The position numbers were made by a program, and so were the translations under genes. A stretch of 32,731 nucleotides of DNA. Origin: Deltaproteobacteria bacterium RBG_16_54_11. GTDB lineage: Bacteria > Desulfobacterota > B13-G15 > RBG-16-54-18. The notes beneath the pieces were generated by a model, which saw only the letters and a list, made by a program, of their open reading frames with translations, did not search any database and had not been told where the DNA came from. Positions within the stretch are counted from its first letter, which is position 1. Each line of letters opens with the position of its first letter. This document shows, in pieces, positions 1,339 through 32,296 of the stretch. The stretch is taken from NCBI GenBank assembly GCA_001797905.1, contig MGQS01000032.1:1-32731 (forward strand), written 5' to 3'.

Positions 1339-1427
1339 TAGAGCGCCTCTTTTAAGATCCTCTCGCAAGAGGGGACTGAGAACTCTGCCTCACTTTTTAG
1401 ATTGCTGTTGTATCTCTTAATTTTTTT

Positions 1428-1465
1428 GTAACAGATCTGCAATATTCCCGTAACAAAGATCGGAT
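1428..1465 (+). promoter_or_regulatory. Second copy of the phased direct-repeat box (GTAAC-n6-GCAAT-n6-GTAAC-n6-CGGAT) upstream of amtB
   Basis: GTAACA at 1428-1433 and 1450-1455, GCAATATT at 1439-1446. Internal spacing is identical to the 424-461 copy and a T-run again precedes it. A possible -10 TAATAT at 1468-1473 lies 17 nt after TTCCCG. Confidence 0.5.
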
Positions 1466-1514
1466 ATTAATATTCGCAGATTAAAAAATAAATTTGACGA
1501 GGAGGAAAAAGGAT

Positions 1515-2738
1515 ATGAATACGGGAGATACTGCTTTTGTCTTGGTCTCGTCGGCTTTGGTCATGCTCATGACACCGGGCCTCGCCTTGTTCTACGGGGG
1601 AATGGCCAGAAACAAAAACGTCCTCGGCACCCTGATGCAGAGTTTCATTATGCTGGGCATCATCACGGTGGAATGGGTGCTCTGGGGATACTCCATGGCC
1701 TTCGGTCCGGATCATGGAGGCATCATAGGCGGTTTAAACTGGTTTGGGCTCAAAGGCGTCGGGATGGAGCCGAGCGCTGTTTATGGCCCCACCATACCGC
1801 ATATGGTTTTTATGGTCTTCCAATGTATGTTTGCCATCATCACGCCGGCCCTGATCACCGGCGCCTTTGCCGAGCGTATAAAGTTCAGCGCATTTATGCT
1901 CTTTTCTATACTTTGGGCCACCCTGGTCTACAACCCCCTAGCTCACTGGGTTTGGGGCGTCGGCGGGTGGCTAGGCAAAATGGGGGCCCTGGACTTCGCC
2001 GGGGGGACAGTGGTACACATCAGTTCCGGGATTTCCGCTTTAGCTGCAGCCATCATTGTCGGCAAACGCCGAGGCTATGGAACCGTGCCCTTCATTCCTC
2101 ACAACCTCCCCATGACCGTCACCGGGGCCGGCCTCCTGTGGTTCGGCTGGTTCGGCTTTAATGCCGGCAGCGCCCTGGCGAGTAATGGCCTCGCTGCCAA
2201 CGCCTTCGTGGTCACCCATGTCGCCTCAGCCACGGCCGCCCTGTCCTGGATAATACTTGAGTGGTTACACCGGGGCAAGCCTACTACCCTGGGCGCTGCA
2301 AGTGGGGCTGTGGCCGGCTTAGTCGCAATTACGCCAGGCTCCGGGTTTGTAGGTCCGGTAGCGGCCCTTATCATTGGGGCTTTGGTCAGTGTCATCTGCT
2401 ACGGCGGCATCATGTTAAAATCAAAGCTTGGTTATGATGATTCCCTCGACGTGTTCGGCATCCATGGATTGGGAGGAACGTGGGGGGCTTTGGCCACCGG
2501 TCTGTTCGCCAGCAAGCTGATCAACCCTAATGGAGCCAATGGACTCTTCTTCGGAAACCCTGGCCAACTCTGGACCCAATTTCTTGCCGTGGCCGTAACC
2601 TGGATCTTTGCCTTTGTCATGACCTCGATCATCCTTAAGGTGGTCGATGTTATCGTCGGCTTGAGGGTCACTGACGAGGATGAAGAAAGAGGGCTCGATA
2701 TCAGCCAACACAACGAGACCGGATACAGTGTCTCATGA
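1515..2738 (+). CDS. amtB: Ammonium transporter AmtB (Amt/MEP family)
   Basis: About 11 hydrophobic segments. Amt signatures are present: ..DFAGGTVVHISSGISAL.., ..LLWFGWFGFNAGS.., ..GIHGLGGTWGA... I prefer ATG 1515 (GAGGAGG 9 nt upstream) over the track's TTG 1494. Confidence 0.93.
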   Translation: MNTGDTAFVLVSSALVMLMTPGLALFYGGMARNKNVLGTLMQSFIMLGIITVEWVLWGYSMAFGPDHGGIIGGLNWFGLKGVGMEPSAVYGPTIPHMVFMVFQCMFAIITPALITGAFAERIKFSAFMLFSILWATLVYNPLAHWVWGVGGWLGKMGALDFAGGTVVHISSGISALAAAIIVGKRRGYGTVPFIPHNLPMTVTGAGLLWFGWFGFNAGSALASNGLAANAFVVTHVASATAALSWIILEWLHRGKPTTLGAASGAVAGLVAITPGSGFVGPVAALIIGALVSVICYGGIMLKSKLGYDDSLDVFGIHGLGGTWGALATGLFASKLINPNGANGLFFGNPGQLWTQFLAVAVTWIFAFVMTSIILKVVDVIVGLRVTDEDEERGLDISQHNETGYSVS

Positions 2739-2759
2739 AAAAACCTCTACTATATATAA

Positions 2760-3110
<351 letters not shown>

Positions 3111-3142
3111 CATATAAACTACTATTAAATGTCTATGGCGAT

Positions 3143-3179
3143 GAGGAGGTACTGCCTGCATCAACGACAGTACCTCCTC
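3143..3179 (+). promoter_or_regulatory. Perfect 12-bp stem-loop between glnK and glnD, with no U-tract
   Basis: GAGGAGGTACTG (3143-3154) pairs with CAGTACCTCCTC (3168-3179) across a 13-nt loop. It lies 33 nt after the glnK stop and about 30 nt before the glnD start. Confidence 0.5.
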
Positions 3180-3210
3180 GGATAATAACTCAAGGAGAAC
3201 TGACAGAAGA

Positions 3211-5838
3211 GTGGAATATTCGGCTGCGCAGCTTAAAACATCTAGACAGCAACTTATTACGCTGTTTACGGACGGTTTGAATACAAAATCCTTCCCCGAG
3301 GAAAATACAGCCCTCATAGATCAGTATTTTCAGGATAGTTTGCCGGAAAGCCACGTGGGGAGGACATTGCTGCAGCAGGGCATCCCCTTTGCTTTTATCG
3401 CGTTGGGAGGATATGGCCGAAGAGAACTATGCCTCCACTCTGATATCGACACGCTCTTGTTGTTCGGGAAAAAGGTTCCGTCCCAGGCAAAGACCCTGGT
3501 GCAGGAGATACTTTTCCCCCTCTGGGATCTCGGCCTTGATTTAGGATATGGGACTCGCACCATCAAGGATTGCCTGAGGATTGCAAAAATAGATTTTGAG
3601 GTCCTTACGTCGTTACTCGATGCACGTTTCATTGGAGGAGAGTATCCACTCTATCTCGATCTTATTGAAAAGCTTTACAAGAAAGTCGTAACTAAAAAAG
3701 CGCGCGACCTGCACCGGTGGTTGGCCGAACAAGACAAAAAACGACTGGAGACTTTTGGCGACTCAAGTTATCTCCTTGAGCCTAACCTCAAAGAGGGAAT
3801 TGGCGGCCTGAGAGATTACCACCATATGCTGTGGCTGGCCAAGGCATCTTTTGGCCCCCGGGAAACCCATGAGCAAGCGTTTCGCGCAAGACTATCGTAT
3901 CAAGAATATCAGGACTTGAGACAGCACGTGAGCTTCCTCTTGAATATAAGAAACCATCTACACCTCCGGTCACTTCGTAAGAATGACCGTTTGACATTCG
4001 AAGATCAGGAAGAAATCGCCAACAGGCTTGGATTACGAGACAAAAAAACATCACTCGCCGCAGAGCAATTTAACGAGCTGGTGCATGCCACCATGGCTGC
4101 TCTTAAATCCCTGTCCCGCTCCTTCATCGGCGGCCTTTTTGCGACGAAGAAGAAGCGCTCGAAGATAAGGCAGATGCCCCTGGTTCCCCGAGGCCTTGTT
4201 GTTGATGGAGGAGAACTCTGTTTTGATACAGTCCGTACCATCATAAAAAATCCTTCTTTATTAATGATCATTTTTGAGCACAGCGCTCTCCTTGGTTACG
4301 CCCTTTCTTTGGAGGCAAGGAGAATAATCCGCGAGTTTTTATACCTCGTGGATGATTCCTTCCGCCGATCAAAAACCATTATCAATTCTTTTATAAAGAT
4401 TGTGACGCAATCGAACTGCGCGTTTGAAACGTTGAGCCAAATGATGGAAATTGGGTTTCTCGATAGCTTCATTCCCGAATTTGGGCGGATACACAATAGG
4501 GTTGAGTTTGATGCCTATCATATCTATCCCGTTGGAATACATTCTCTACAGACGATTCGGTACCTTAAAAGTTTAACAGAGGAGAAAGATATCCTGCTCA
4601 GAGATCTCTTTGTAGAACTGCAGCATCCCGAACGGCTCTTCCTGGCAGGCCTTTTTCATGACATCGGGAAGATCGGTTCAGACCATGCACGCAGAGGGAC
4701 GAAGATTACAAAAAATATCCTGAAGCGGTTTGGACTAACTGATGACGCAATTGAGGATATTTGCTTTCTTGTACGCTCCCACCTGCTTCTGGCGGAAACG
4801 GCAACCCGGAGAGACTTAAACGATGAGAAGGTAATCGTTCAATGTGCCCGTATGATCGGTAGCCTGGAGAGACTGAAGCTTCTGTACCTGCTTACCTGGG
4901 CTGATTCTCGGGCTACCGGTCCAAAAGCATGGAACGACTGGATCGCCAACTTGATTAGTGAACTCTTCTTTAAAGTCCTCCATATCATGGAGAGTAAAGA
5001 ATTGGCCACGCAGGACGCTTTATCTCGTGTTGAGCACGTCAAAGCTGAAGTGCACAAGAAAGTTGGCCCCATTATAGAGAGGCAGGATCTTGAAAACTCT
5101 TTCGAGCTTATGCCCCCCCGTTATCTGCTCAATACACATCCCCGGAAAATTGTTCAACATCTGGGCATGGCAGAAAGCTTGAAAGCAAAAAAGCAAGCTA
5201 ACGAGACTAAATCCGGAGGCCATGCGGGGGATGAGGTTTTCATCTTTGAATCCAGAGAGGACAAAAAAGGAAATTGTTGGGAGATAACAATTGTAGCCAT
5301 AGATAGACCTGGTTTGTTTGCCAACATGGCCGGCGTTCTCGCCCTTAATGCCATTAACATACTTTCTGCCGACATATACACGTGGCGAGATGGAACTGCC
5401 GTTGATGTCCTGCGCACGACCAATCCGCTTGACGGCCTGTTCGTACAAGAGAAATGGGCCAAGGGCAAAGAGGATCTTAAAAACGTTCTCGCCGGCAGAT
5501 TATCTCTCGAATCCTCCGTCGGTAATGAAGAAACACCTCGTAGTCCAACAGGCTTAAAAAAGCTAGCACGAAAGCCGACCGTGATCGTAGATAACGAATC
5601 ATCAGATTTCTTTACGATAATTGAAGTCTATTCCCACGACCATGTCGTGCTTCTCTATCGTATTACTCATACACTGTTTGACCTCGGCCTGGACATTCAT
5701 AGCGCCAGAATTGCCGCCGCTGCAGACCAAGTCGTGGACGTCTTCTACGTGCGAGACCTGGAGGGTCAGAAGATTGAAGATGTCGGGAGGGTAAAAGAGA
5801 TAAAACGGATCCTGCTCAAGCAGCTAAAACCCCTATAA
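3211..5838 (+). CDS. glnD: [Protein-PII] uridylyltransferase / uridylyl-removing enzyme GlnD
   Basis: 875 aa. Nucleotidyltransferase motif GGYGRRELCLHSDIDTLLLF, HD domain (..LAGLFHDIGK..) and two C-terminal ACT-like segments (ITIVAIDRPGLFANMAGVLA.., TIIEVYSHDHVVLLYRITHTLF..). GTG start; the exact start is not certain. Confidence 0.9.
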   Translation: MEYSAAQLKTSRQQLITLFTDGLNTKSFPEENTALIDQYFQDSLPESHVGRTLLQQGIPFAFIALGGYGRRELCLHSDIDTLLLFGKKVPSQAKTLVQEILFPLWDLGLDLGYGTRTIKDCLRIAKIDFEVLTSLLDARFIGGEYPLYLDLIEKLYKKVVTKKARDLHRWLAEQDKKRLETFGDSSYLLEPNLKEGIGGLRDYHHMLWLAKASFGPRETHEQAFRARLSYQEYQDLRQHVSFLLNIRNHLHLRSLRKNDRLTFEDQEEIANRLGLRDKKTSLAAEQFNELVHATMAALKSLSRSFIGGLFATKKKRSKIRQMPLVPRGLVVDGGELCFDTVRTIIKNPSLLMIIFEHSALLGYALSLEARRIIREFLYLVDDSFRRSKTIINSFIKIVTQSNCAFETLSQMMEIGFLDSFIPEFGRIHNRVEFDAYHIYPVGIHSLQTIRYLKSLTEEKDILLRDLFVELQHPERLFLAGLFHDIGKIGSDHARRGTKITKNILKRFGLTDDAIEDICFLVRSHLLLAETATRRDLNDEKVIVQCARMIGSLERLKLLYLLTWADSRATGPKAWNDWIANLISELFFKVLHIMESKELATQDALSRVEHVKAEVHKKVGPIIERQDLENSFELMPPRYLLNTHPRKIVQHLGMAESLKAKKQANETKSGGHAGDEVFIFESREDKKGNCWEITIVAIDRPGLFANMAGVLALNAINILSADIYTWRDGTAVDVLRTTNPLDGLFVQEKWAKGKEDLKNVLAGRLSLESSVGNEETPRSPTGLKKLARKPTVIVDNESSDFFTIIEVYSHDHVVLLYRITHTLFDLGLDIHSARIAAAADQVVDVFYVRDLEGQKIEDVGRVKEIKRILLKQLKPL

Positions 5839-5911: not shown

Positions 5912-8560
5912 TCAGCCCTCTGCCTCCCACTCTTCGTTCATCTTCAAGCCGCTGCTTGTAAGGACCGATACTTTAGCGGCGCTGATGGTACGGTAGATGT
6001 CCCGGGGCTCCATCTTCTTCCCGTCAACCATCAAAAGGTGGTCATCGATGGAGATACCGAAGAGTCGCTCGTTTTCCTGAAGAAAGGGAAGGATGAGCTG
6101 CCAGTCGCGGTCCGTAAAAGGAGAGATCATGCCGCCGTTGAGCTGCTCCGGAACGATCTTTTTATGGGGATCACGAACGTAGATGGCTCCGCCGGAGGCA
6201 AGGGAAAAGAGGTTTGATCCCAGGTAGGGCGTCGCCAGGGGGGTCACCTTGCCATCATGGTCAAAGGTCAACCCGTTAAGGACAACAAACCCGCCGCCAT
6301 TATGGGGGTCTCCGGCCATAAAGGACTCTGCGAGAAAATCAAGGGCCGTGCCGTTGATAACAGCCTTCGGTTTGCCCACGGCATTGATAAAGGGGCGGCC
6401 TGCTGCGTTTCCCAGCACATACACCTCGCCGCCTTTTGCGCCATACATAAAGGTTTGGCCCACATCGCCGTAGACGACGAGCTTGCCTGACTTCATGATC
6501 TGCCCAAGTTGATCCTGAGCATTGCCGTGGACATAGATCTCGAGACCGTCTATGCCGGATGCGAGATAGTCCCCTGTGGAGCCATAGGCATCGATGCGAA
6601 CGCCTCTCGTATCGGGACCCAGACCGCAGCCCAGGAAGCGCTGCCCCCGCTGGCCAAAGCAAACGAACCGTCTCCAGCCCAGCTGATAGGCCTCAGATAT
6701 GAGGCCGGCAAAAGAATCTGCACCTTCCGAGGGAAACTGGCTGGCATCACAAACGAGCACCTTTTCAGCCCCTTCGGGTGCACGGAGCGCCTTGCGGCTT
6801 TCGAAATCGATCCGGCGGCCATCCAGCACGGCTCCGGTATCGTTGATCATGGGAACCCCCTTGAAGATCAAATCGAGCGTACCAGAGACCATCTGGAGGA
6901 CACTGCGGCGCCTCTTGCTCCCCAGAGGGTAGCGCTGGGTGAGGAGGAGCGTGAGCAAGCCGATCACCGGCTCCGTCAGCCCGTCTTCTGCGGAACGGCT
7001 CAGCAAGAGAGCGAGCAAGCTGTTGATATCGGCATAGTCCCACGTATGGAAGTCCCTCTTCACAGTGGTGAAGAGTTCCTTTGCATTCTGCTGAGACAAC
7101 TCCTTCACTATGCCCCTCAGGGTATCTCCGTGGGTGGTTTGCCGGGGCAACTGCGTCCGGGCATCGAGAGGTACCTGGTGTGCGGGCACATCGATGACCC
7201 GGCCGAACTTATCAGTACAGGTAAGGTTCATCAGGCCAGGAGAAGACTTTTTTACGGTAAAGATGAAGGCCCCTCCATCGGTATAGCTTCCGCCGCGGGC
7301 ATTCCAGTAATAATCGGCAACGGTGCCGAATCTGGGGTCCTCCTTTGCGAGGCTCTCAAGGGTGGCATCGATGGCCTGTTTTTCCGAACAGATGAGGCCG
7401 ATCTCGACCTCTCCTTTCTGGAGCGCAAAGACCTGGGGCCTCAGCATGGACGTATCGGTAATGCCGATCAGCTGGAATTGCTTATTCCTCACATCGGTGC
7501 GGGCGATGATGAAGAACCAGGGGCCGTCAGGAGAGCCGTGGATATGTGTTGTCTGGATCTGCCGGTAGATGCGCTGCTTCTCCTCGGGGAGGTGATCAAA
7601 GTCCATCTCTACCGTAGGGGCGAGGGCTTCGATGACATATTCGAGGGGGTAGCCGTAGACCCTGCTGAGGAGGTCCACGATCTGGACAGAGACCTCCGTG
7701 TCGGTAAGAAAAAGGGGATAGATATTGCGCTGGCGCAGGTATTGAGAAACCGAATAGTAATTGGCAAAATCGCCGTTGTGAACGAGGGCCTCATCGAGAC
7801 CGATGAAAGGATGGGCGCCCCCGGGATGCCAGACACGGCCCTTGGTAGGATACCGCTGGTGGGCAATCCAGATATGGGCATCGAAATTCTCCAGTTTATA
7901 ATACTGGGCTACCTGTTCCGCATAGCCCACGATCTTGAGGATCATCATGTTGCGGCCATGGGAAAGGACAAAGGCCTTCTTTTCTCCCAGGGCGCTGTAC
8001 AGAGCAAGGTTGAGCTGGTAGGTATTCTGGTAGATAAACTCTTCTTCTGCCTTATCAAGCGGGAGTATCTCCAGGTGGCGCTCCCTGCAAAAGGCAGCGA
8101 GGGCTTCGGGCTTTACGCGGACAAAATAGCGTTTTACCGCAGGAGGTTTTACTTCCAGTCCGGGAACATCCCGGTAATCATCGATGGTCTCAAGAAAGGC
8201 CTCGTGGTCAACCCGGAAGTGGGGTCTGATGAAACGCGCTTCCATCTCGGGGAGGACCGCATCATCGAGCAGGGCCACCTGGAGGAGAAAATCCTCATCA
8301 AGGGTCTTCTGGTCTACCCCCATCTTTGCCGGCGTAAGGCCGACGGCGGCAAGGCCTCCGCCTTTCCCGTTGCCGCGATTGTGCATCTGTACCGAAGGCG
8401 CAAAGATATGTTTCCCACTCACGGGTATGCTGCATGCAAAACCCGTTACGCCGCAGCCGCCTTCATCAACCTTCATATCCGCACGCCTTACGAGCCTTTC
8501 CGCTTCCCGGAACGGCCGCCGTGCATCTATGATTGCCTGTGCTATCCTTTGTTGCTCCAT
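5912..8560 (-). CDS. Split glutamate synthase subunit: class-II (Ntn) glutamine amidotransferase domain fused to the C-terminal GXGXG beta-helix domain
   Basis: The N-terminal part has GGCGVTGF.., HQRYPTKGRVWHPGGAHPF and HNGDFANY. The C-terminal part has GXGXG-type repeats (..YGSTGDYLASGIDGLEIYVHGNAQDQLG..VVYGDVGQTFMYGAKGGEVYVLGNAAGR..). The start is uncertain: M1 at 8560 or M29 at 8476, just before the putative catalytic Cys. Confidence 0.8.
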   Translation of the reverse strand: MEQQRIAQAIIDARRPFREAERLVRRADMKVDEGGCGVTGFACSIPVSGKHIFAPSVQMHNRGNGKGGGLAAVGLTPAKMGVDQKTLDEDFLLQVALLDDAVLPEMEARFIRPHFRVDHEAFLETIDDYRDVPGLEVKPPAVKRYFVRVKPEALAAFCRERHLEILPLDKAEEEFIYQNTYQLNLALYSALGEKKAFVLSHGRNMMILKIVGYAEQVAQYYKLENFDAHIWIAHQRYPTKGRVWHPGGAHPFIGLDEALVHNGDFANYYSVSQYLRQRNIYPLFLTDTEVSVQIVDLLSRVYGYPLEYVIEALAPTVEMDFDHLPEEKQRIYRQIQTTHIHGSPDGPWFFIIARTDVRNKQFQLIGITDTSMLRPQVFALQKGEVEIGLICSEKQAIDATLESLAKEDPRFGTVADYYWNARGGSYTDGGAFIFTVKKSSPGLMNLTCTDKFGRVIDVPAHQVPLDARTQLPRQTTHGDTLRGIVKELSQQNAKELFTTVKRDFHTWDYADINSLLALLLSRSAEDGLTEPVIGLLTLLLTQRYPLGSKRRRSVLQMVSGTLDLIFKGVPMINDTGAVLDGRRIDFESRKALRAPEGAEKVLVCDASQFPSEGADSFAGLISEAYQLGWRRFVCFGQRGQRFLGCGLGPDTRGVRIDAYGSTGDYLASGIDGLEIYVHGNAQDQLGQIMKSGKLVVYGDVGQTFMYGAKGGEVYVLGNAAGRPFINAVGKPKAVINGTALDFLAESFMAGDPHNGGGFVVLNGLTFDHDGKVTPLATPYLGSNLFSLASGGAIYVRDPHKKIVPEQLNGGMISPFTDRDWQLILPFLQENERLFGISIDDHLLMVDGKKMEPRDIYRTISAAKVSVLTSSGLKMNEEWEAEG

Positions 8561-15410: not shown

Positions 15411-15439
15411 CAAAAAAATGGCGTCCCTTTGGACGCCAT
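15411..15439 (-). terminator. Intrinsic terminator (also a candidate attenuator) about 80 nt upstream of the 529-aa gene
   Basis: Minus strand reads AUGGCGUCC-aaag-GGACGCCAU followed by U7 (GUC). The 9-bp stem is perfect. Confidence 0.75.
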
Positions 15440-15451
15440 TTTCTGCGTCTG

Positions 15452-15467
15452 GACACCCCTTTGTGCC
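15452..15467 (-). promoter_or_regulatory. Leader hairpin P1, GGCAC-AAAGGG-GUGUC (hexaloop with A1 and G4)
   Basis: Same stem as the hairpin at 13663-13678 and the same position relative to an upstream TTGACA. Confidence 0.5.
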
Positions 15468-15474
15468 TCGGATT

Positions 15475-15504
15475 CCTCTACCAGGTTACTGCCAGGCTGT
15501 CAAG
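15475..15504 (-). promoter_or_regulatory. Possible promoter TTGACA-18nt-TAGAGG (perfect -35, poor -10)
   Basis: Minus strand: TTGACA at 15504-15499. Its geometry relative to the GGCAC hairpin mirrors the 13687-13715 promoter. Confidence 0.3.
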
Positions 15505-15636: not shown

Positions 15637-15665
15637 TTTACAAGGCACGGGGGTTGTGCTATATA
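15637..15665 (+). promoter_or_regulatory. Strong sigma-70-type promoter TTTACA-17nt-TGcTATATA (extended -10)
   Basis: TTTACA at 15637-15642, TG at 15657-15658 and TATATA at 15660-15665. The predicted start is about 15671-15672. Confidence 0.55.
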
Positions 15666-15670
15666 CAACA

Positions 15671-15820
15671 AGGGGGAAAACAGGGCGTAAAAGCTCCTGC
15701 GTTGGCGCCAGCCGGCGCTGTGGTTCAGGAACCCCCCTAAAACCCCATAGCCTGTACCGTGTTTTCCCCCTTTAAATGGAAATTAAGGGCCGTCCCTGAG
15801 GACGGCCCTTAGTCCTTTCG
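15671..15820 (+). ncRNA. Candidate structured small RNA or cis-regulatory RNA of unknown family
   Basis: It begins at the predicted transcription start. GGGGGAAAACA (15672-15682) pairs with UGUUUUCCCCC (15760-15770), closing a ~100-nt domain. Inner helices are UCCUG/CAGGA and GCGCC-agcc-GGCGC. An 11-bp hairpin AAGGGCCGUCC-cuga-GGACGGCCCUU follows at 15785-15810. No credible ORF is present. Confidence 0.4.
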
Positions 15821-16055
15821 GTAACCCGACAAAGAACTATGGTGAAAGCCTCGTATGCACCTTTTCATCCAGGGCCCCCCTTCTCCCGCCGTCCGTCATT
15901 GGGCACCATGCACCGGATATCCTATCCTCTAAGGCCTGCTCATAATACGCAGCAACGAGTACAAGTACTTGAATCCTGAGGGAGTACATGGTATCTTCCC
16001 AGAGGTGAGAGAATAACCCTTCATGGCTTGGGCTATAGGATAGGAAATCGCGTCA

Positions 16056-29395: not shown

Positions 29396-29646
29396 TTCTT
29401 GCAGATCTCTTTCGCTATGCCTATATAAGGAGGCCGCTGACCGAGGTTTATTCCAAGCCTGAGGAGGTACCCGAAGAATTTTGGTACGATTGGTGGAAAG
29501 ACGCCTATGACTATCAGCGGGAACAGGATGAAGAAGAGCTCAGAGGTCACCTCACGATGACACCCAGAGATATCCTTACCTGGCTGGAGGAGGCGGCGGA
29601 GTTCGTTTGGAAGTGCAAAAGGATACATCGGACGATTTCCCCTTGA
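29392..29646 (+). CDS. Small acidic, Trp-rich hypothetical protein, translationally coupled to the NTase gene
   Basis: ATGA overlap with the upstream stop and RBS GAGGGGA. 84 aa (..EEFWYDWWKDAYDYQREQDEEE..TPRDILTWLEEAAEF..). I recognise no family. Confidence 0.5.
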   Translation: MILADLFRYAYIRRPLTEVYSKPEEVPEEFWYDWWKDAYDYQREQDEEELRGHLTMTPRDILTWLEEAAEFVWKCKRIHRTISP

Positions 29647-29661
29647 GCACGAGGTAATAGG

Positions 29662-29883
29662 ATGCCCTCTTTCGGTAGTCTCGGAAAGTTCCTCATTATC
29701 TTTGGCATATGCCTCGCGGTGATAGGGTTAATTCTGATCCTCGGAGATAAGATCCCCTGGATCGGGAGACTTCCCGGTGATATCTATATCAAGCGTGATA
29801 AGTTCACCTTCTACTTCCCCCTCATGACCAGCATCATCATCAGCCTCCTGCTGACCCTCCTCTTTGCCCTCTTCAGAAAATAA
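29662..29883 (+). CDS. DUF2905-family small membrane protein
   Basis: 73 aa with two transmembrane helices. ..WIGRLPGDIYIKRDKFTFYFPLMTSIIISL.. matches the DUF2905 signature. Confidence 0.75.
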   Translation: MPSFGSLGKFLIIFGICLAVIGLILILGDKIPWIGRLPGDIYIKRDKFTFYFPLMTSIIISLLLTLLFALFRK

Positions 29884-29962
29884 GCCCCCTGGTCCCTACC
29901 TGAGCCCCCTTTCCCCAGACCCAAGGATTTGAGAGGAATATTCTGTTATTTCCGTGGTGTTC
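29881..29962 (+). repeat. Copy A of an 82-nt direct repeat that begins exactly at a stop codon
   Basis: TAAGCCCCCTGGTCCCTACCTGAGCCCCCTTTCCCCAGACCCAAGGATTTGAGAGGAATATTCTGTTATTTCCGTGGTGTTC. It differs from 30714-30794 at 3 substitutions and 1 indel. Confidence 0.85.
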
Positions 29963-30205
29963 TGTCGCTTTGCGACATCTCCCGTTTTAAGGGACCCCGT
30001 TGTCCACAAAAATCATATTGAGGTGCGGGGCCGTCATTCATATTTTGCCGCCTTGCGGCATGATGTCATTAGAAAGATTTAAAGGAGCATCATTATACAA
30101 AGTCCCCCACTATATCGTAGGGCGATACATCCCAACATTTATATTTTGTAGAAAGCTGAGAGGGACATTCGGATAGTTTTAAAGAGGGGATGTCGCAAAG
30201 CGACA
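29963..30205. mobile_element. MITE-like 243-bp element bounded by 17-bp inverted termini (TGTCGCTTTGCGACATC), non-coding
   Basis: The left end at 29963-29979 equals the reverse complement of 30189-30205. It interrupts copy A of the repeat module relative to the uninterrupted copy at 30714-30831. An internal palindrome TGCCGCCTTGCGGCA lies at about 30046-30060. I see no target-site duplication. Confidence 0.35.
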
Positions 30206-30260
30206 CAGTGCGGGACGTGAAAATTCCGTGGTGAGATTTCGCTTTTGTTATATTCGGTTT

Positions 30261-30330
30261 AGAAGAAATATTCTGTTTTTTCCGTGTTATTCCGTGAAAA
30301 TTCCGTGGTAAAATTCTTGTTGTGCCATGG
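30261..30330 (+). repeat. Partial copy of the repeat module (GAATATTCT...TTCCGTG x3...TTGTTGTGCCATG)
   Basis: It aligns with 30764-30831: AGAAGAAATATTCTGTTTTTTCCGTGTTATTCCGTGAAAATTCCGTGGTAAAATTCTTGTTGTGCCATGG. Confidence 0.7.
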
Positions 30331-30542
30331 ACGAGAAGGCCGGGACGTTGTTGACTAGCTTGACAAGGATTCGAGGTGGGGGCAGGCTTGCGATGGTGCT
30401 CAAACCCCGACTTCAGCGGGACTACGCCGCCCCTCCTTGTTACCCGTTAACTACGGACAAAGTACCAAAAAACATACGCCTATTCCAATCCTTTACCTAT
30501 GCTGCTATACTATGATATCGTATATCAAGGAAGGAGGGAAAT

Positions 30543-30716
30543 ATGAGCAAATCCCAACCGCGTTACATAGTAGATGAAAGCGGCAACAAAACCGCAGTAG
30601 TGATACCTGTCGAGGAATATGAAGATCTTCTAGAGGATGTGCATGACCTCGCCATTATTGCTGAACGTAAAAACGAATCCACCATAAGCTTTGATGAGTT
30701 AAAGAAGCGTGTGTAA
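30543..30716 (+). CDS. Putative type II antitoxin (Phd/YefM- or RelB-like), 57 aa, with no cognate toxin gene
   Basis: Absent from the ORF track (<60 aa). RBS GGAAGGAGGG lies 5-6 nt upstream of ATG 30543. Translation: MSKSQPRYIVDESGNKTAVVIPVEEYEDLLEDVHDLAIIAERKNESTISFDELKKRV*. The ..AVVIPVEEYEDLLEDxxDL.. pattern is characteristic of antitoxin N-terminal domains. Confidence 0.6.
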   Translation: MSKSQPRYIVDESGNKTAVVIPVEEYEDLLEDVHDLAIIAERKNESTISFDELKKRV

Positions 30717-30831
30717 GCCCCCTGGTCCCTACCTGAGCCCCCTTTCCCCAGCCCCAAGGATTTAGAGGAATATTCTATTATTTCCGTGGCGTTCCATGAA
30801 AACTCCGTGGTGAAATTTTTGTTGTGCCATG
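30714..30831 (+). repeat. Copy B of the repeat module, uninterrupted, beginning at the antitoxin stop codon
   Basis: 30714-30794 matches 29881-29962. 30764-30831 matches 30261-30330. Confidence 0.85.
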
Positions 30832-30980
30832 TCCCCTAAGGACTCCATATTTTGGGTAAAATTTATGCTTGCTTTTTCCCTCTTATTTTGTTATAAATTT
30901 CACGAATATCCCTTGGACGGCGTTGAGAAAATACCTGAGATCACACGAGGGCAGTTAAAAACATTTTTTTTGATTTTAAG

Positions 30981-30996
30981 TGTGAAACTATTCACA
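30981..30996. promoter_or_regulatory. Perfect CRP/FNR-family palindrome TGTGA-N6-TCACA upstream of the MFS transporter gene
   Basis: TGTGAAACTATTCACA. Its 3' end is 40 nt before ATG 31037. Confidence 0.55.
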
Positions 30997-31036
30997 AAAA
31001 AGCAGCAAACAATTAACTCATCAAGGAGGTTATAAT

Positions 31037-32296
31037 ATGGCACAAAAGGTTAAGAATAAGGGCTGGAGTGTCACCTTCAGCGGGACAGGGATCAACCTTG
31101 CCCTGGGCATCCTCTATACGTGGAGCATCTTCAAGGTGGCGATCAAGCAATCCATTGAGGCTGGGGGTACAGGCGCATTCAGCTGGGACCTCGCTAAGCT
31201 CAATGACCCCTACGCCGCCTGTTGTCTCGTCTTTGCCTTTGCCATGATTTTGGCAGGGAAGTGTCAGGATAAGTTCGGCCCCCGCATTACCGCCTTCATC
31301 GGTGGTATCCTTGTGGGATTAGGTTTTCTCTTGATCTCGCAGACCACAAATTATTACCTCTGGATTCTGGGTTTCGGCGTCCTGGCCGGTGCGGGAATCG
31401 GCTTCGGATACTCCTCGGCAACCCCGCCTGCGCTCAAATGGTTCCCGCCGCAAAAGACGGGATTGATCGCCGGCTTGGTGGTCGCCGGTTTCGGCCTTGC
31501 CTCCGTCTATATCGCACCCTTATCAAAATATCTCTTGCAAATCTGGGGGCTGCAAAGCGCCATGCTCTTTTTCGCAATAGCCTTTTTGATCGTCGTGTGC
31601 TCACTTTCCCTGCTCCTGGTAAACCCACCAGCCGGATATGTGCCCAAAGGCAAGGCTAAAGCAGGCAAAAAAGCTCCTGTCGTGGCAGCCCAAACCGAAG
31701 CCTCACCATCGCACATGATAAAGACATTGGCTTTCTGTAAGATATGGTTTATCTATTTTATCGGGGCCGGCGCCGGACTGATGGTGATCAGCAGCGTTTC
31801 GGACATGGCTAAGAAGAGTATGGGAGAACTAGCCTTTGTGGCCGTAGCCATTTTGGCCATTGGTAATGCAGGCGGCCGGATCATCGCCGGCCTGATATCG
31901 GACAAGATCGGCCGCAAGGCGACCCTCATCATCATGCTGTCGTTCCAGGCAATCCTCATGCTCGTCGCCATCCCCGTGGTAGGCGCTGAACAGACAAGCG
32001 CCCTTGTGATGGTCCTGCTGGCCACCTTTGTCGGCTTCAACTACGGGACCAATCTCTCCCTCTTCCCCGCCTTGACAAAGGACAAGTGGGGACTCAAGAA
32101 CTTCGGCATCAACTACGGCATCGTGTTTACCGCCTGGGGTGTGGGCGGATTTGTCATGAGCCGGCTGTCGCAGATGTTGTACGCCAGCAGCAAGAGTTAT
32201 ACCTCATCTTTTTTGACGGCGGTTGCCTTCCTCATCGTCGGCGTCATCATCACGTTGACGCTCAAGACAAGGACGGCAAAGGCTGAAAAGAGATAG
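31037..32296 (+). CDS. MFS transporter, oxalate/formate antiporter (OFA)-like family
   Basis: 419 aa with about 12 transmembrane segments. N-terminal ..GWSVTFSGTGINLALGILYTWSIF.. and ..GKCQDKFGPRITAFIGG.. are typical of OFA-type MFS. Strong RBS AAGGAGG. Confidence 0.8.
   Translation: MAQKVKNKGWSVTFSGTGINLALGILYTWSIFKVAIKQSIEAGGTGAFSWDLAKLNDPYAACCLVFAFAMILAGKCQDKFGPRITAFIGGILVGLGFLLISQTTNYYLWILGFGVLAGAGIGFGYSSATPPALKWFPPQKTGLIAGLVVAGFGLASVYIAPLSKYLLQIWGLQSAMLFFAIAFLIVVCSLSLLLVNPPAGYVPKGKAKAGKKAPVVAAQTEASPSHMIKTLAFCKIWFIYFIGAGAGLMVISSVSDMAKKSMGELAFVAVAILAIGNAGGRIIAGLISDKIGRKATLIIMLSFQAILMLVAIPVVGAEQTSALVMVLLATFVGFNYGTNLSLFPALTKDKWGLKNFGINYGIVFTAWGVGGFVMSRLSQMLYASSKSYTSSFLTAVAFLIVGVIITLTLKTRTAKAEKR

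Follow-up and report, generated by a model that had tools for sequence, protein, structure and literature searches.

A probable ANTAR-target-type attenuation leader ahead of a glutamate-synthase-family gene in Deltaproteobacteria bacterium RBG_16_54_11

The minus strand of a 32,731-nucleotide (nt) stretch of DNA from Deltaproteobacteria bacterium RBG_16_54_11 (contig MGQS01000032.1; hereafter the window) carries two short leaders: leader A (15503-15411), which lies ahead of a gene for a stand-alone glutamate-synthase-family protein (the GltB-like gene), and leader B (13715-13620), which lies ahead of an operon containing glutamate synthase (GOGAT)-like genes. Here, we document the anatomy and conservation of leader A, its homology to leaders with two hexaloop hairpins and the ANTAR genes and nitrogen genes to which such leaders are linked in other genomes, and conclude that leader A is probably a transcription-attenuation leader of the ANTAR-target type.

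The ANTAR-target motif is a pair of small hairpins that have stems of at least 3 bp and hexaloops bearing A at the first position (A1) and G at the fourth (G4), separated by a linker of 2–25 nt, the second hairpin competing with an intrinsic terminator (PMC3369931; PMC8934654; PMC8164766). These parts can be read in leader A (Table 1), its second stem having two standard pairs. Seven bases separate the −10 element from a first hairpin, P1, which has 5 bp and a hexaloop with A1 and G4, and whose loop is closed by A-U and C-G, the same pairs that were found to be sequence-specific in EutV targets (PMC3369931). An 8-nt linker (CAGACGCA) leads to a second hairpin, P2, also with A1 and G4 in its hexaloop, and the 3′ part of P2 (GGCGUC, 15437-15432) is itself the 5′ arm of the terminator, so that P2 and the terminator are mutually exclusive.

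The promoter ahead of these hairpins is omitted by a promoter scan because its −10 hexamer ends in G; the CTG[G/A]TA block of the extended −10 element is kept in alignments of leader A orthologs, and transcription would be expected to start at about 15473-15468, at the foot of P1. The terminator, whose stem can be extended by A-U pairs to about 15444, sits 80 nt upstream of the GltB-like start codon. RNA folding returned P1 plus terminator in both leaders (z = −5.2 and −4.0), with a predicted fold of −29 to −31 kcal/mol for leader A. The pattern GGCAC-ANNGNN-GTGTC has zero-mismatch matches only at the two leaders across both strands of the window, against a chance expectation of ~0.004 by our own arithmetic.

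All of the elements that the original prediction had named in leader A (−35, −10, P1, GACGC, GCGTC, terminator and a downstream TATAAT) were found in their predicted places, with corrections of detail: the −35 and −10 elements are indeed the same distance apart in both leaders, but that distance is 17 nt rather than 18 nt, and the terminator runs into seven U residues (15418-15412), not eight. The TATAAT (15384-15379, minus strand), which had been offered as a second promoter, has no acceptable −35 element, is unlisted by the promoter scan and reads TATGAT, TGTGAT or CATTAT in orthologs; we do not regard it as a promoter. The proposal that GACGC and GCGUC pair as an antiterminator stands in part. 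Such a 5-bp helix is possible: folding of the truncated RNA predicts it for the window and for locus L004 (there as GGCGC/GCGUC), the only two in which it is kept. In L003, L001 and L088 it is weaker, and the L084 fold lacks it; nor is it the structure predicted for the truncated RNA of L001, L088 or L084. The register homologous to other leaders is the hexaloop hairpin GAA-AAUGGC-GUC.

That register comes from the covariance model R2, for which 15 canonical dual-hexaloop leaders of several lineages were selected by eye, leader A not among them. R2 aligned leader A without gaps over P1, linker and P2, scoring 24.5 bits; this is the second-best R2 match in the window (E 6e-4 in the window with filters off; E 0.019 in 1 Mb, both rough because the calibration was short). 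In the R2 alignment the sole defect of P2 in leader A is its closing pair: the stem consists of G-C, A-U and an A.G mismatch in place of C-G, leaving two standard pairs.

Leader B, which R2 scored at 54.3 bits, has every feature of the published ANTAR-target motif. The two leaders are homologous, with shared blocks in a pairwise alignment, and both are conserved in relatives. The earlier suggestion that they are paralogous, functional-looking cis-elements of one regulon is supported. The block GACAAGGGCGTCT of leader B never changes, whereas the 3′ arm of the terminator varies in register and sequence, the signature of a 5′ arm that does double duty.

Contigs carrying the closest homologs of the 529-aa GltB-like protein retain both leaders (L003, L001/L002, L004, L005, L006 and L011; L003 is identical to CAZMFG01, an ‘uncultured Thermodesulfobacteriota’ metagenome-assembled genome, MAG), and L001-type loci retain leader B even in front of another GOGAT set. 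The promoter, P1 and terminator of leader A are kept in the window, L003, L001, L004, L084 and L088; P1 is more strongly conserved than its flanks in six orthologs, and the terminator is kept in all orthologs, with substitutions that preserve pairing. The stretch between P1 and the terminator drifts among orthologs, and in two of these leaders (L006 and L109) it holds a complete second hairpin of textbook form, GAC-AAAGGU-GUC, overlapping the terminator. At L005 (~700-935) the leader A ortholog has the TTGACA/extended −10 promoter and the terminator, P1 is gone and leader B is intact, making this a possible case of regulatory decay.

A genome scan, restricted to one genome per species and requiring only TTGACA, P1 and a T-run, recovered 26 loci, where we estimate that chance would yield about a dozen. 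A P2 that the search had not asked for (GAC-ANNGNN-GUC or GAGC...GCUC), overlapping a terminator, was present in at least 13 of them. Their hosts comprise Thermodesulfobacteriota, ‘Deltaproteobacteria’ RBG MAGs, Syntrophorhabdus and Syntrophorhabdaceae, Actinomycetota, Paceibacterota, Omnitrophota and Clostridia. Behind the leaders stand GltB-like genes (L084, L088, L109 and L087), mvhD operons (L095, L098 and L108), gdhA (L086), a type III glutamine synthetase (GS-III; L089), a GltS FMN-domain protein (L090) and glnA (L099). The further copies that had been predicted thus exist in relatives and other phyla, ahead of gdhA, amtB-glnK, glnA, GS-III and other GOGAT operons, with nitrogen as the common theme. 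The amtB-glnK case is a Syntrophorhabdus MAG (L098), in which two tandem elements (3965-4085, minus strand) precede amtB (2562-3944) and glnK (2207-2548): the first combines GCAC-AUUGAU-GUGU and AAC-AUAGGC-GUU with a terminator, the second places AGAC-AGGGGU-GUCU within a second terminator, and the same contig has a canonical leader ahead of mvhD.

In other lineages the motif adjoins ANTAR genes. We searched for such genes near leaders with a regular expression and a small custom hidden Markov model, and found them at L022-L024, L083, L087, L099 and L105; a tblastn search with one ANTAR protein matched only itself. In an Actinomycetota MAG (L087), a GAF-ANTAR gene is followed by a leader, whose P1 loop AAAGGG is identical to that of leader A, and a GltB-like gene; at L099/L105 the order is leader, glnA, ANTAR gene; and at L022/L023, L024 and L083 a GAF-ANTAR gene adjoins a GltB-like gene (PF03861 by Pfam in all three arrangements). 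Hairpins with hexaloops, AACAC-ANNGNN-GUGUU, also occur at L022 and L024. The arrangement of GAF-ANTAR directly beside a stand-alone GltB-like gene recurs in several unrelated metagenomic lineages (regions at L087 4622-5320 and 5592-5701, L083 1-714, L022 248-985 and 8394-9197, and L024 ~3047-3208, minus strand). The hexaloop pair past the ANTAR gene of L022 lacks an obvious terminator and a further hairpin there overlaps the ribosome-binding site, which hints at translational control.

Base-pair evidence came from 28 homologous P1 hairpins, which share an invariant G4 and have paired bases in 98.6% of cells. At pair 1, 25 of them have G-C and 2 have A-U; at pair 2, 14 have A-U, 9 have G.U and 5 have G-C. 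The hairpin also looks like an inverted repeat at about +1 to +16 with conserved arms, as a DNA operator for a dimeric repressor would, the terminator then being unrelated. That reading is highly improbable: where the symmetry breaks, it is nearly always through G.U on the sense strand and in no case the other way round, as pair 2 illustrates, which fits an RNA and not a DNA palindrome; what would be the operator's spacer contains the invariant G4; and the element is always accompanied by a second hexaloop hairpin overlapping a terminator. A terminator-bearing leader ahead of nitrogen-assimilation genes could likewise be a small-molecule riboswitch, sensing for example glutamine or 2-oxoglutarate. 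We consider this extremely unlikely, since the sensing part would consist of 16-nt and 12-nt hairpins, too small for known ligand pockets, and linkage to ANTAR genes explains the leader better; moreover, Rfam 15 gave no match at gathering score in the window and none to the leaders, the matches below gathering score being at chance level (E ≥0.1) and resting on the terminator hairpin. We rejected both readings.

Several observations weigh against assigning leader A to the ANTAR-target type. Its second stem has two standard pairs where at least three are called for, and EutV required both hairpins and their closing pairs (PMC3369931). The P2 region has also decayed in various ways in orthologs: G4 is missing from L001 and L088, a 1-nt deletion affects L084, and in L005 P1 has gone too. 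A narrow covariance model, R1, gave leader A only 11.3 bits; most of the leaders behind R1 were near-identical and of B type, the model was over-fitted to the linker and the AAGGGC loop, and R2 took its place. Alignments made with R1 were distorted by variable linkers and were set aside. Covariation in P1, a check that the original prediction had called for, does include some pair-preserving variation but is limited to two pairs, as pairs 3-5 and all P2 pairs of the canonical set are invariant; around half of the 28 P1 sequences were, moreover, chosen by a pattern that fixes pairs 3-5 and part of pairs 1-2, so we rate the covariation as supportive but thin. Finally, no ANTAR gene (PF03861) is present in the window or in the ~20 loci of the Thermodesulfobacteriota clade that we examined.

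The state of P2—non-canonical in the window and variously degraded in L001, L088, L084 and L003—together with an L005 leader that has kept its terminator without P1, the demands of EutV and the low R1 score, would suit a decaying or constitutive attenuator of ANTAR descent, unresponsive or weakly responsive, which damps the GltB-like gene while real control is exercised at leader B. We judge this unlikely, however, given the conservation of P1 above its surroundings in six orthologs, a P2 in the window that keeps A1 and G4 and scores as part of a full-length R2 match, and a terminator so strong that without an escape it would silence a very highly conserved gene; on structural grounds, too, one hexaloop has been argued to be the minimal unit for ANTAR binding (PMC8934654). 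A related and similarly improbable account is that leader A and its sisters are ANTAR leaders with one canonical hexaloop, in which P1 is the sole high-affinity site and antitermination works through a weak, drifting second element or a newly evolved 5-bp helix; in its radical version, the clade has no ANTAR protein and another RNA-binding regulator reads the GRCAC/GUGYC hairpin. Were the one-hexaloop account true, these leaders would be a natural test of the model in which a single hexaloop is the minimal unit and hexaloops are bound successively.

The lack of an ANTAR gene in the window and in those ~20 loci, the unusual conservation of the stems GRCAC/GUGYC and GAC/GUC and the presence of glnD, glnK and amtB in the window raise the question of whether the hairpins are bound by a regulator from outside the ANTAR family, for example a lineage-specific RNA-binding protein linked to the nearby PII/GlnD system and following the same antitermination logic. 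This seems very unlikely to us: the motif matches ANTAR determinants point by point and adjoins ANTAR genes in three other lineages, and conserved closing pairs are found in EutV targets too (PMC3369931). In Geobacter sulfurreducens, too, gnfK and gnfR lie apart in the genome, and leaders at several separate loci are under GnfR control (PMC2995071).

For an ANTAR-target-type leader A, we infer a binding protein, a direction of regulation, a signal and a start site as follows, the regulator being assumed. A strong promoter of sigma-70 type (TTGACA, 17 nt, TGgTAGAGG) would drive constitutive initiation from the foot of P1. In the default state, P1 and then the terminator (15437-15412) would form in the nascent RNA, and polymerase would halt after ~60 nt. 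An active ANTAR-domain protein, encoded outside the window and triggered, by analogy, by nitrogen limitation or another signal through a GAF or receiver domain, would bind the hexaloops of P1 (A15462, G15459) and P2 (A15440, G15437). With P2 held closed, the GGCGUC of the terminator 5′ arm would be sequestered, no terminator would form and polymerase would read through into the GltB-like gene; the GACGC/GCGUC helix could add stability to the antiterminator. Leader B would then serve as a second checkpoint, including for read-through from leader A, placing the whole 9.5-kb cluster under one regulator.

This arrangement resembles the targets of EutV (eutP in Enterococcus faecalis), NasR (nasF) and AmiR (amiE) in its tandem A1/G4 hexaloop hairpins with an 8-nt linker, in the overlap of P2 with the terminator 5′ arm, in the closure of the P1 loop by A-U and C-G, in repeated checkpoints within one cluster and in its nitrogen-metabolism context (Ramesh et al. 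2012, PMC3369931; Walshe et al. 2022, PMC8934654). It differs in the broken P2 closing pair of leader A (GAA...GUC, not GAC...GUC), in the alternative helix of 5 bp with an 8-nt loop, in stems unusually conserved across phyla and in the lack of a regulator in the window. Among the predicted ANTAR regulons of Firmicutes, leaders likewise precede several glutamate synthase or glutamate-synthase-like genes in one genome: several glutamate synthase genes in Desulfotomaculum reducens (Fig. 9A, PMC3369931) and ‘uncharacterized genes with homology to glutamate synthase’ in Desulfitobacterium hafniense and Carboxydothermus hydrogenoformans (Table S2, PMC3369931). Here, by contrast, the host belongs, judging by the nearest MAG records, to the Thermodesulfobacteriota and the operon joins mvhD-metVF to GOGAT-like genes.

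In Geobacter sulfurreducens, a host of deltaproteobacterial type, GnfK and the ANTAR response regulator GnfR control antitermination of nitrogen-fixation genes (Ueki and Lovley 2010, PMC2995071). The nitrogen genes there, glnK and amtB among them, have leaders that contain terminators, and GnfR binds a conserved site, CAGGCAANGGCGCC. The AANGGC core of that site matches the P2 loops of leader B (AAGGGC) and leader A (AAUGGC), but the Geobacter leaders have RpoN (−24/−12) promoters in place of the sigma-70-like TTGACA-17-extended −10 arrangement seen here, a site stem of GGC/GCC as against GAA/GUC (leader A) and GAC/GUC (leader B), and no separate P1 described. With only the loop core in common and a promoter not of RpoN type, we did not class leader A as a Geobacter GnfR-type leader. 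The actinobacterial ANTAR RNAs (Mehta et al. 2021, PMC8164766) were curated by the criteria that we apply here (dual stem-loops, hexaloops, a linker of 2–25 nt and stems of at least 3 bp), and the motif recurs together with GAF-ANTAR in the Actinomycetota MAG at L087; many actinobacterial examples act on translation, through overlap with the ribosome-binding site or start codon, whereas leader A would act through its terminator.

Table 1. Features of the two leaders and their surroundings in the window (P1 and P2, first and second hairpins; MFE, minimum free energy; sRNA, small RNA).
Feature	Position	Strand	Remarks
Leader A −35 hexamer TTGACA	15503-15498	−	Direct reading; invariant across all orthologous leaders; same hexamer in leader B at 13715-13710
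Leader A extended −10 TGgTAGAGG (TG 15483-15482, TAGAGG 15480-15475)	15483-15475	−	17 nt from −35
Leader A P1 GGCAC-AAAGGG-GUGUC, 5 bp, hexaloop with A1 and G4	15467-15452	−	MFE and centroid folds
Leader A CA, then GACGC (15449-15445), AGAAAATG, GCGTC (15436-15432)		−	Direct reading
Leader A P2, homologous register GAA-AAUGGC-GUC, hexaloop with A1 and G4	15443-15432	−	Gapless R2 alignment
Leader A alternative antiterminator helix GACGC/GCGUC, 8-nt loop AGAAAAUG	15449-15432	−	MFE fold of RNA truncated before terminator 3′ arm
Leader A intrinsic terminator GGCGUCC-AAAG-GGACGCC (15437-15420), A, U7 (15418-15412), then GTC	15437-15412	−	
Leader B	13715-13620	−	Ahead of mvhD-metVF-GOGAT-like operon; begins 25 nt past GltB-like stop codon
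Leader B promoter TTGACA-17-TACTAT	−35 at 13715-13710	−	
Leader B P1 GGCAC-AAGGAA-GTGTC	13678-13663	−	
Leader B P2 GAC-AAGGGC-GUC	13654-13643	−	After 8-nt linker
Leader B terminator GGGCGTC-TTACAA-GGCGCCC, then T7-GTC	13649-13630	−	
GltB-like gene, stand-alone FMN-binding glutamate-synthase-family protein, 529 aa	15330-13741	−	Pfam PF01645
Operon behind leader B: mvhD, MetV-like gene, metF, three GOGAT-like genes	13588-5912	−	Ends at 5912
amtB, glnK, glnD	1494-5838	+	Opposite strand
Candidate sRNA promoter-like TTTACA (15637-15642), TATATA (15660-15665)	15637-15665	+	17-nt spacer; conserved
Candidate sRNA core, ~100 nt	15672-15770	+	Almost invariant in eight loci
Candidate sRNA terminator hairpin	15784-15811	+	Compensatory changes; T-runs in relatives, weakly in window

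The GltB-like protein retains ~80% identity across bacteria and archaea; database records name its homologs ‘FMN-binding glutamate synthase family protein’ (FMN, flavin mononucleotide), and it has no NCBIfam equivalog match. The operon behind leader B is unusual in that mvhD (FlpD), a MetV-like gene (PF12225) and metF (MTHFR) stand directly before three GOGAT-like genes, which encode a Fer4 plus partial GltS protein, a GltS FMN-domain protein and a GATase–GXGXG fusion. A Pyr_redox_2 subunit occupies that place in related loci of the L001 type, and the arrangement may represent another way of feeding electrons into glutamate synthase. The region upstream of amtB in the window (1339-1493) holds no copy of the leader motif. 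Elsewhere in the window, 29646-31037 is a stretch of ~1.4 kb without an open reading frame of >75 aa, between a small reading frame and an MFS transporter gene.

Upstream of leader A, and divergent from the GltB-like gene, 15672-15811 on the plus strand looks like an undescribed small RNA (sRNA) of this clade, ~140 nt long. Its core is found in the window, L003, L004, L001, L005, L006, L084 and L088, and partly in L086; in L086 it lies downstream of gdhA and in L006 it is 5 kb from the GltB-like gene. RNAalifold predicted 41 pairs, 10 of them with compensatory changes. The candidate has a closing helix (GGGGGAAAACA/UGUUUUCCCCC), an internal hairpin in which changes from G-C to G.U occur on the plus strand only, and a C-rich unpaired stretch (CCCCCCUAAAACCCC). 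The candidate sRNA matched no Rfam family. At 15761-15847 on the minus strand, a ‘gltS RNA’ (RF02982) match reached 23.2 bits where the gathering score is 47.5 (E 0.3 in 261 nt); it depends mostly on the 15784-15811 hairpin, and we put it down to chance. The candidate was also dismissed as an EutX-like ANTAR decoy, as no hexaloop ANNGNN hairpin was seen by eye.

The mechanism itself and the link to glutamate-synthase-like genes were already published in 2012, so the gain here is one of annotation rather than concept; what is new in leader A is the host group and the degenerate second hairpin. If our assignment is right, it would give a testable control mechanism to a highly conserved, uncharacterized gene of the glutamate synthase family and to an unusual mvhD-metVF-GOGAT-like operon, and place both transcription units under one nitrogen-related RNA-binding regulator. 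Uncultured Thermodesulfobacteriota and Syntrophorhabdaceae would also come within the range of the ANTAR nitrogen regulon, as would, by the same motif, Paceibacterota, Omnitrophota and Actinomycetota MAGs, while the drifting second hairpin would serve, in a modest way, as a natural experiment in how far ANTAR proteins depend on the complete dual-hairpin motif.

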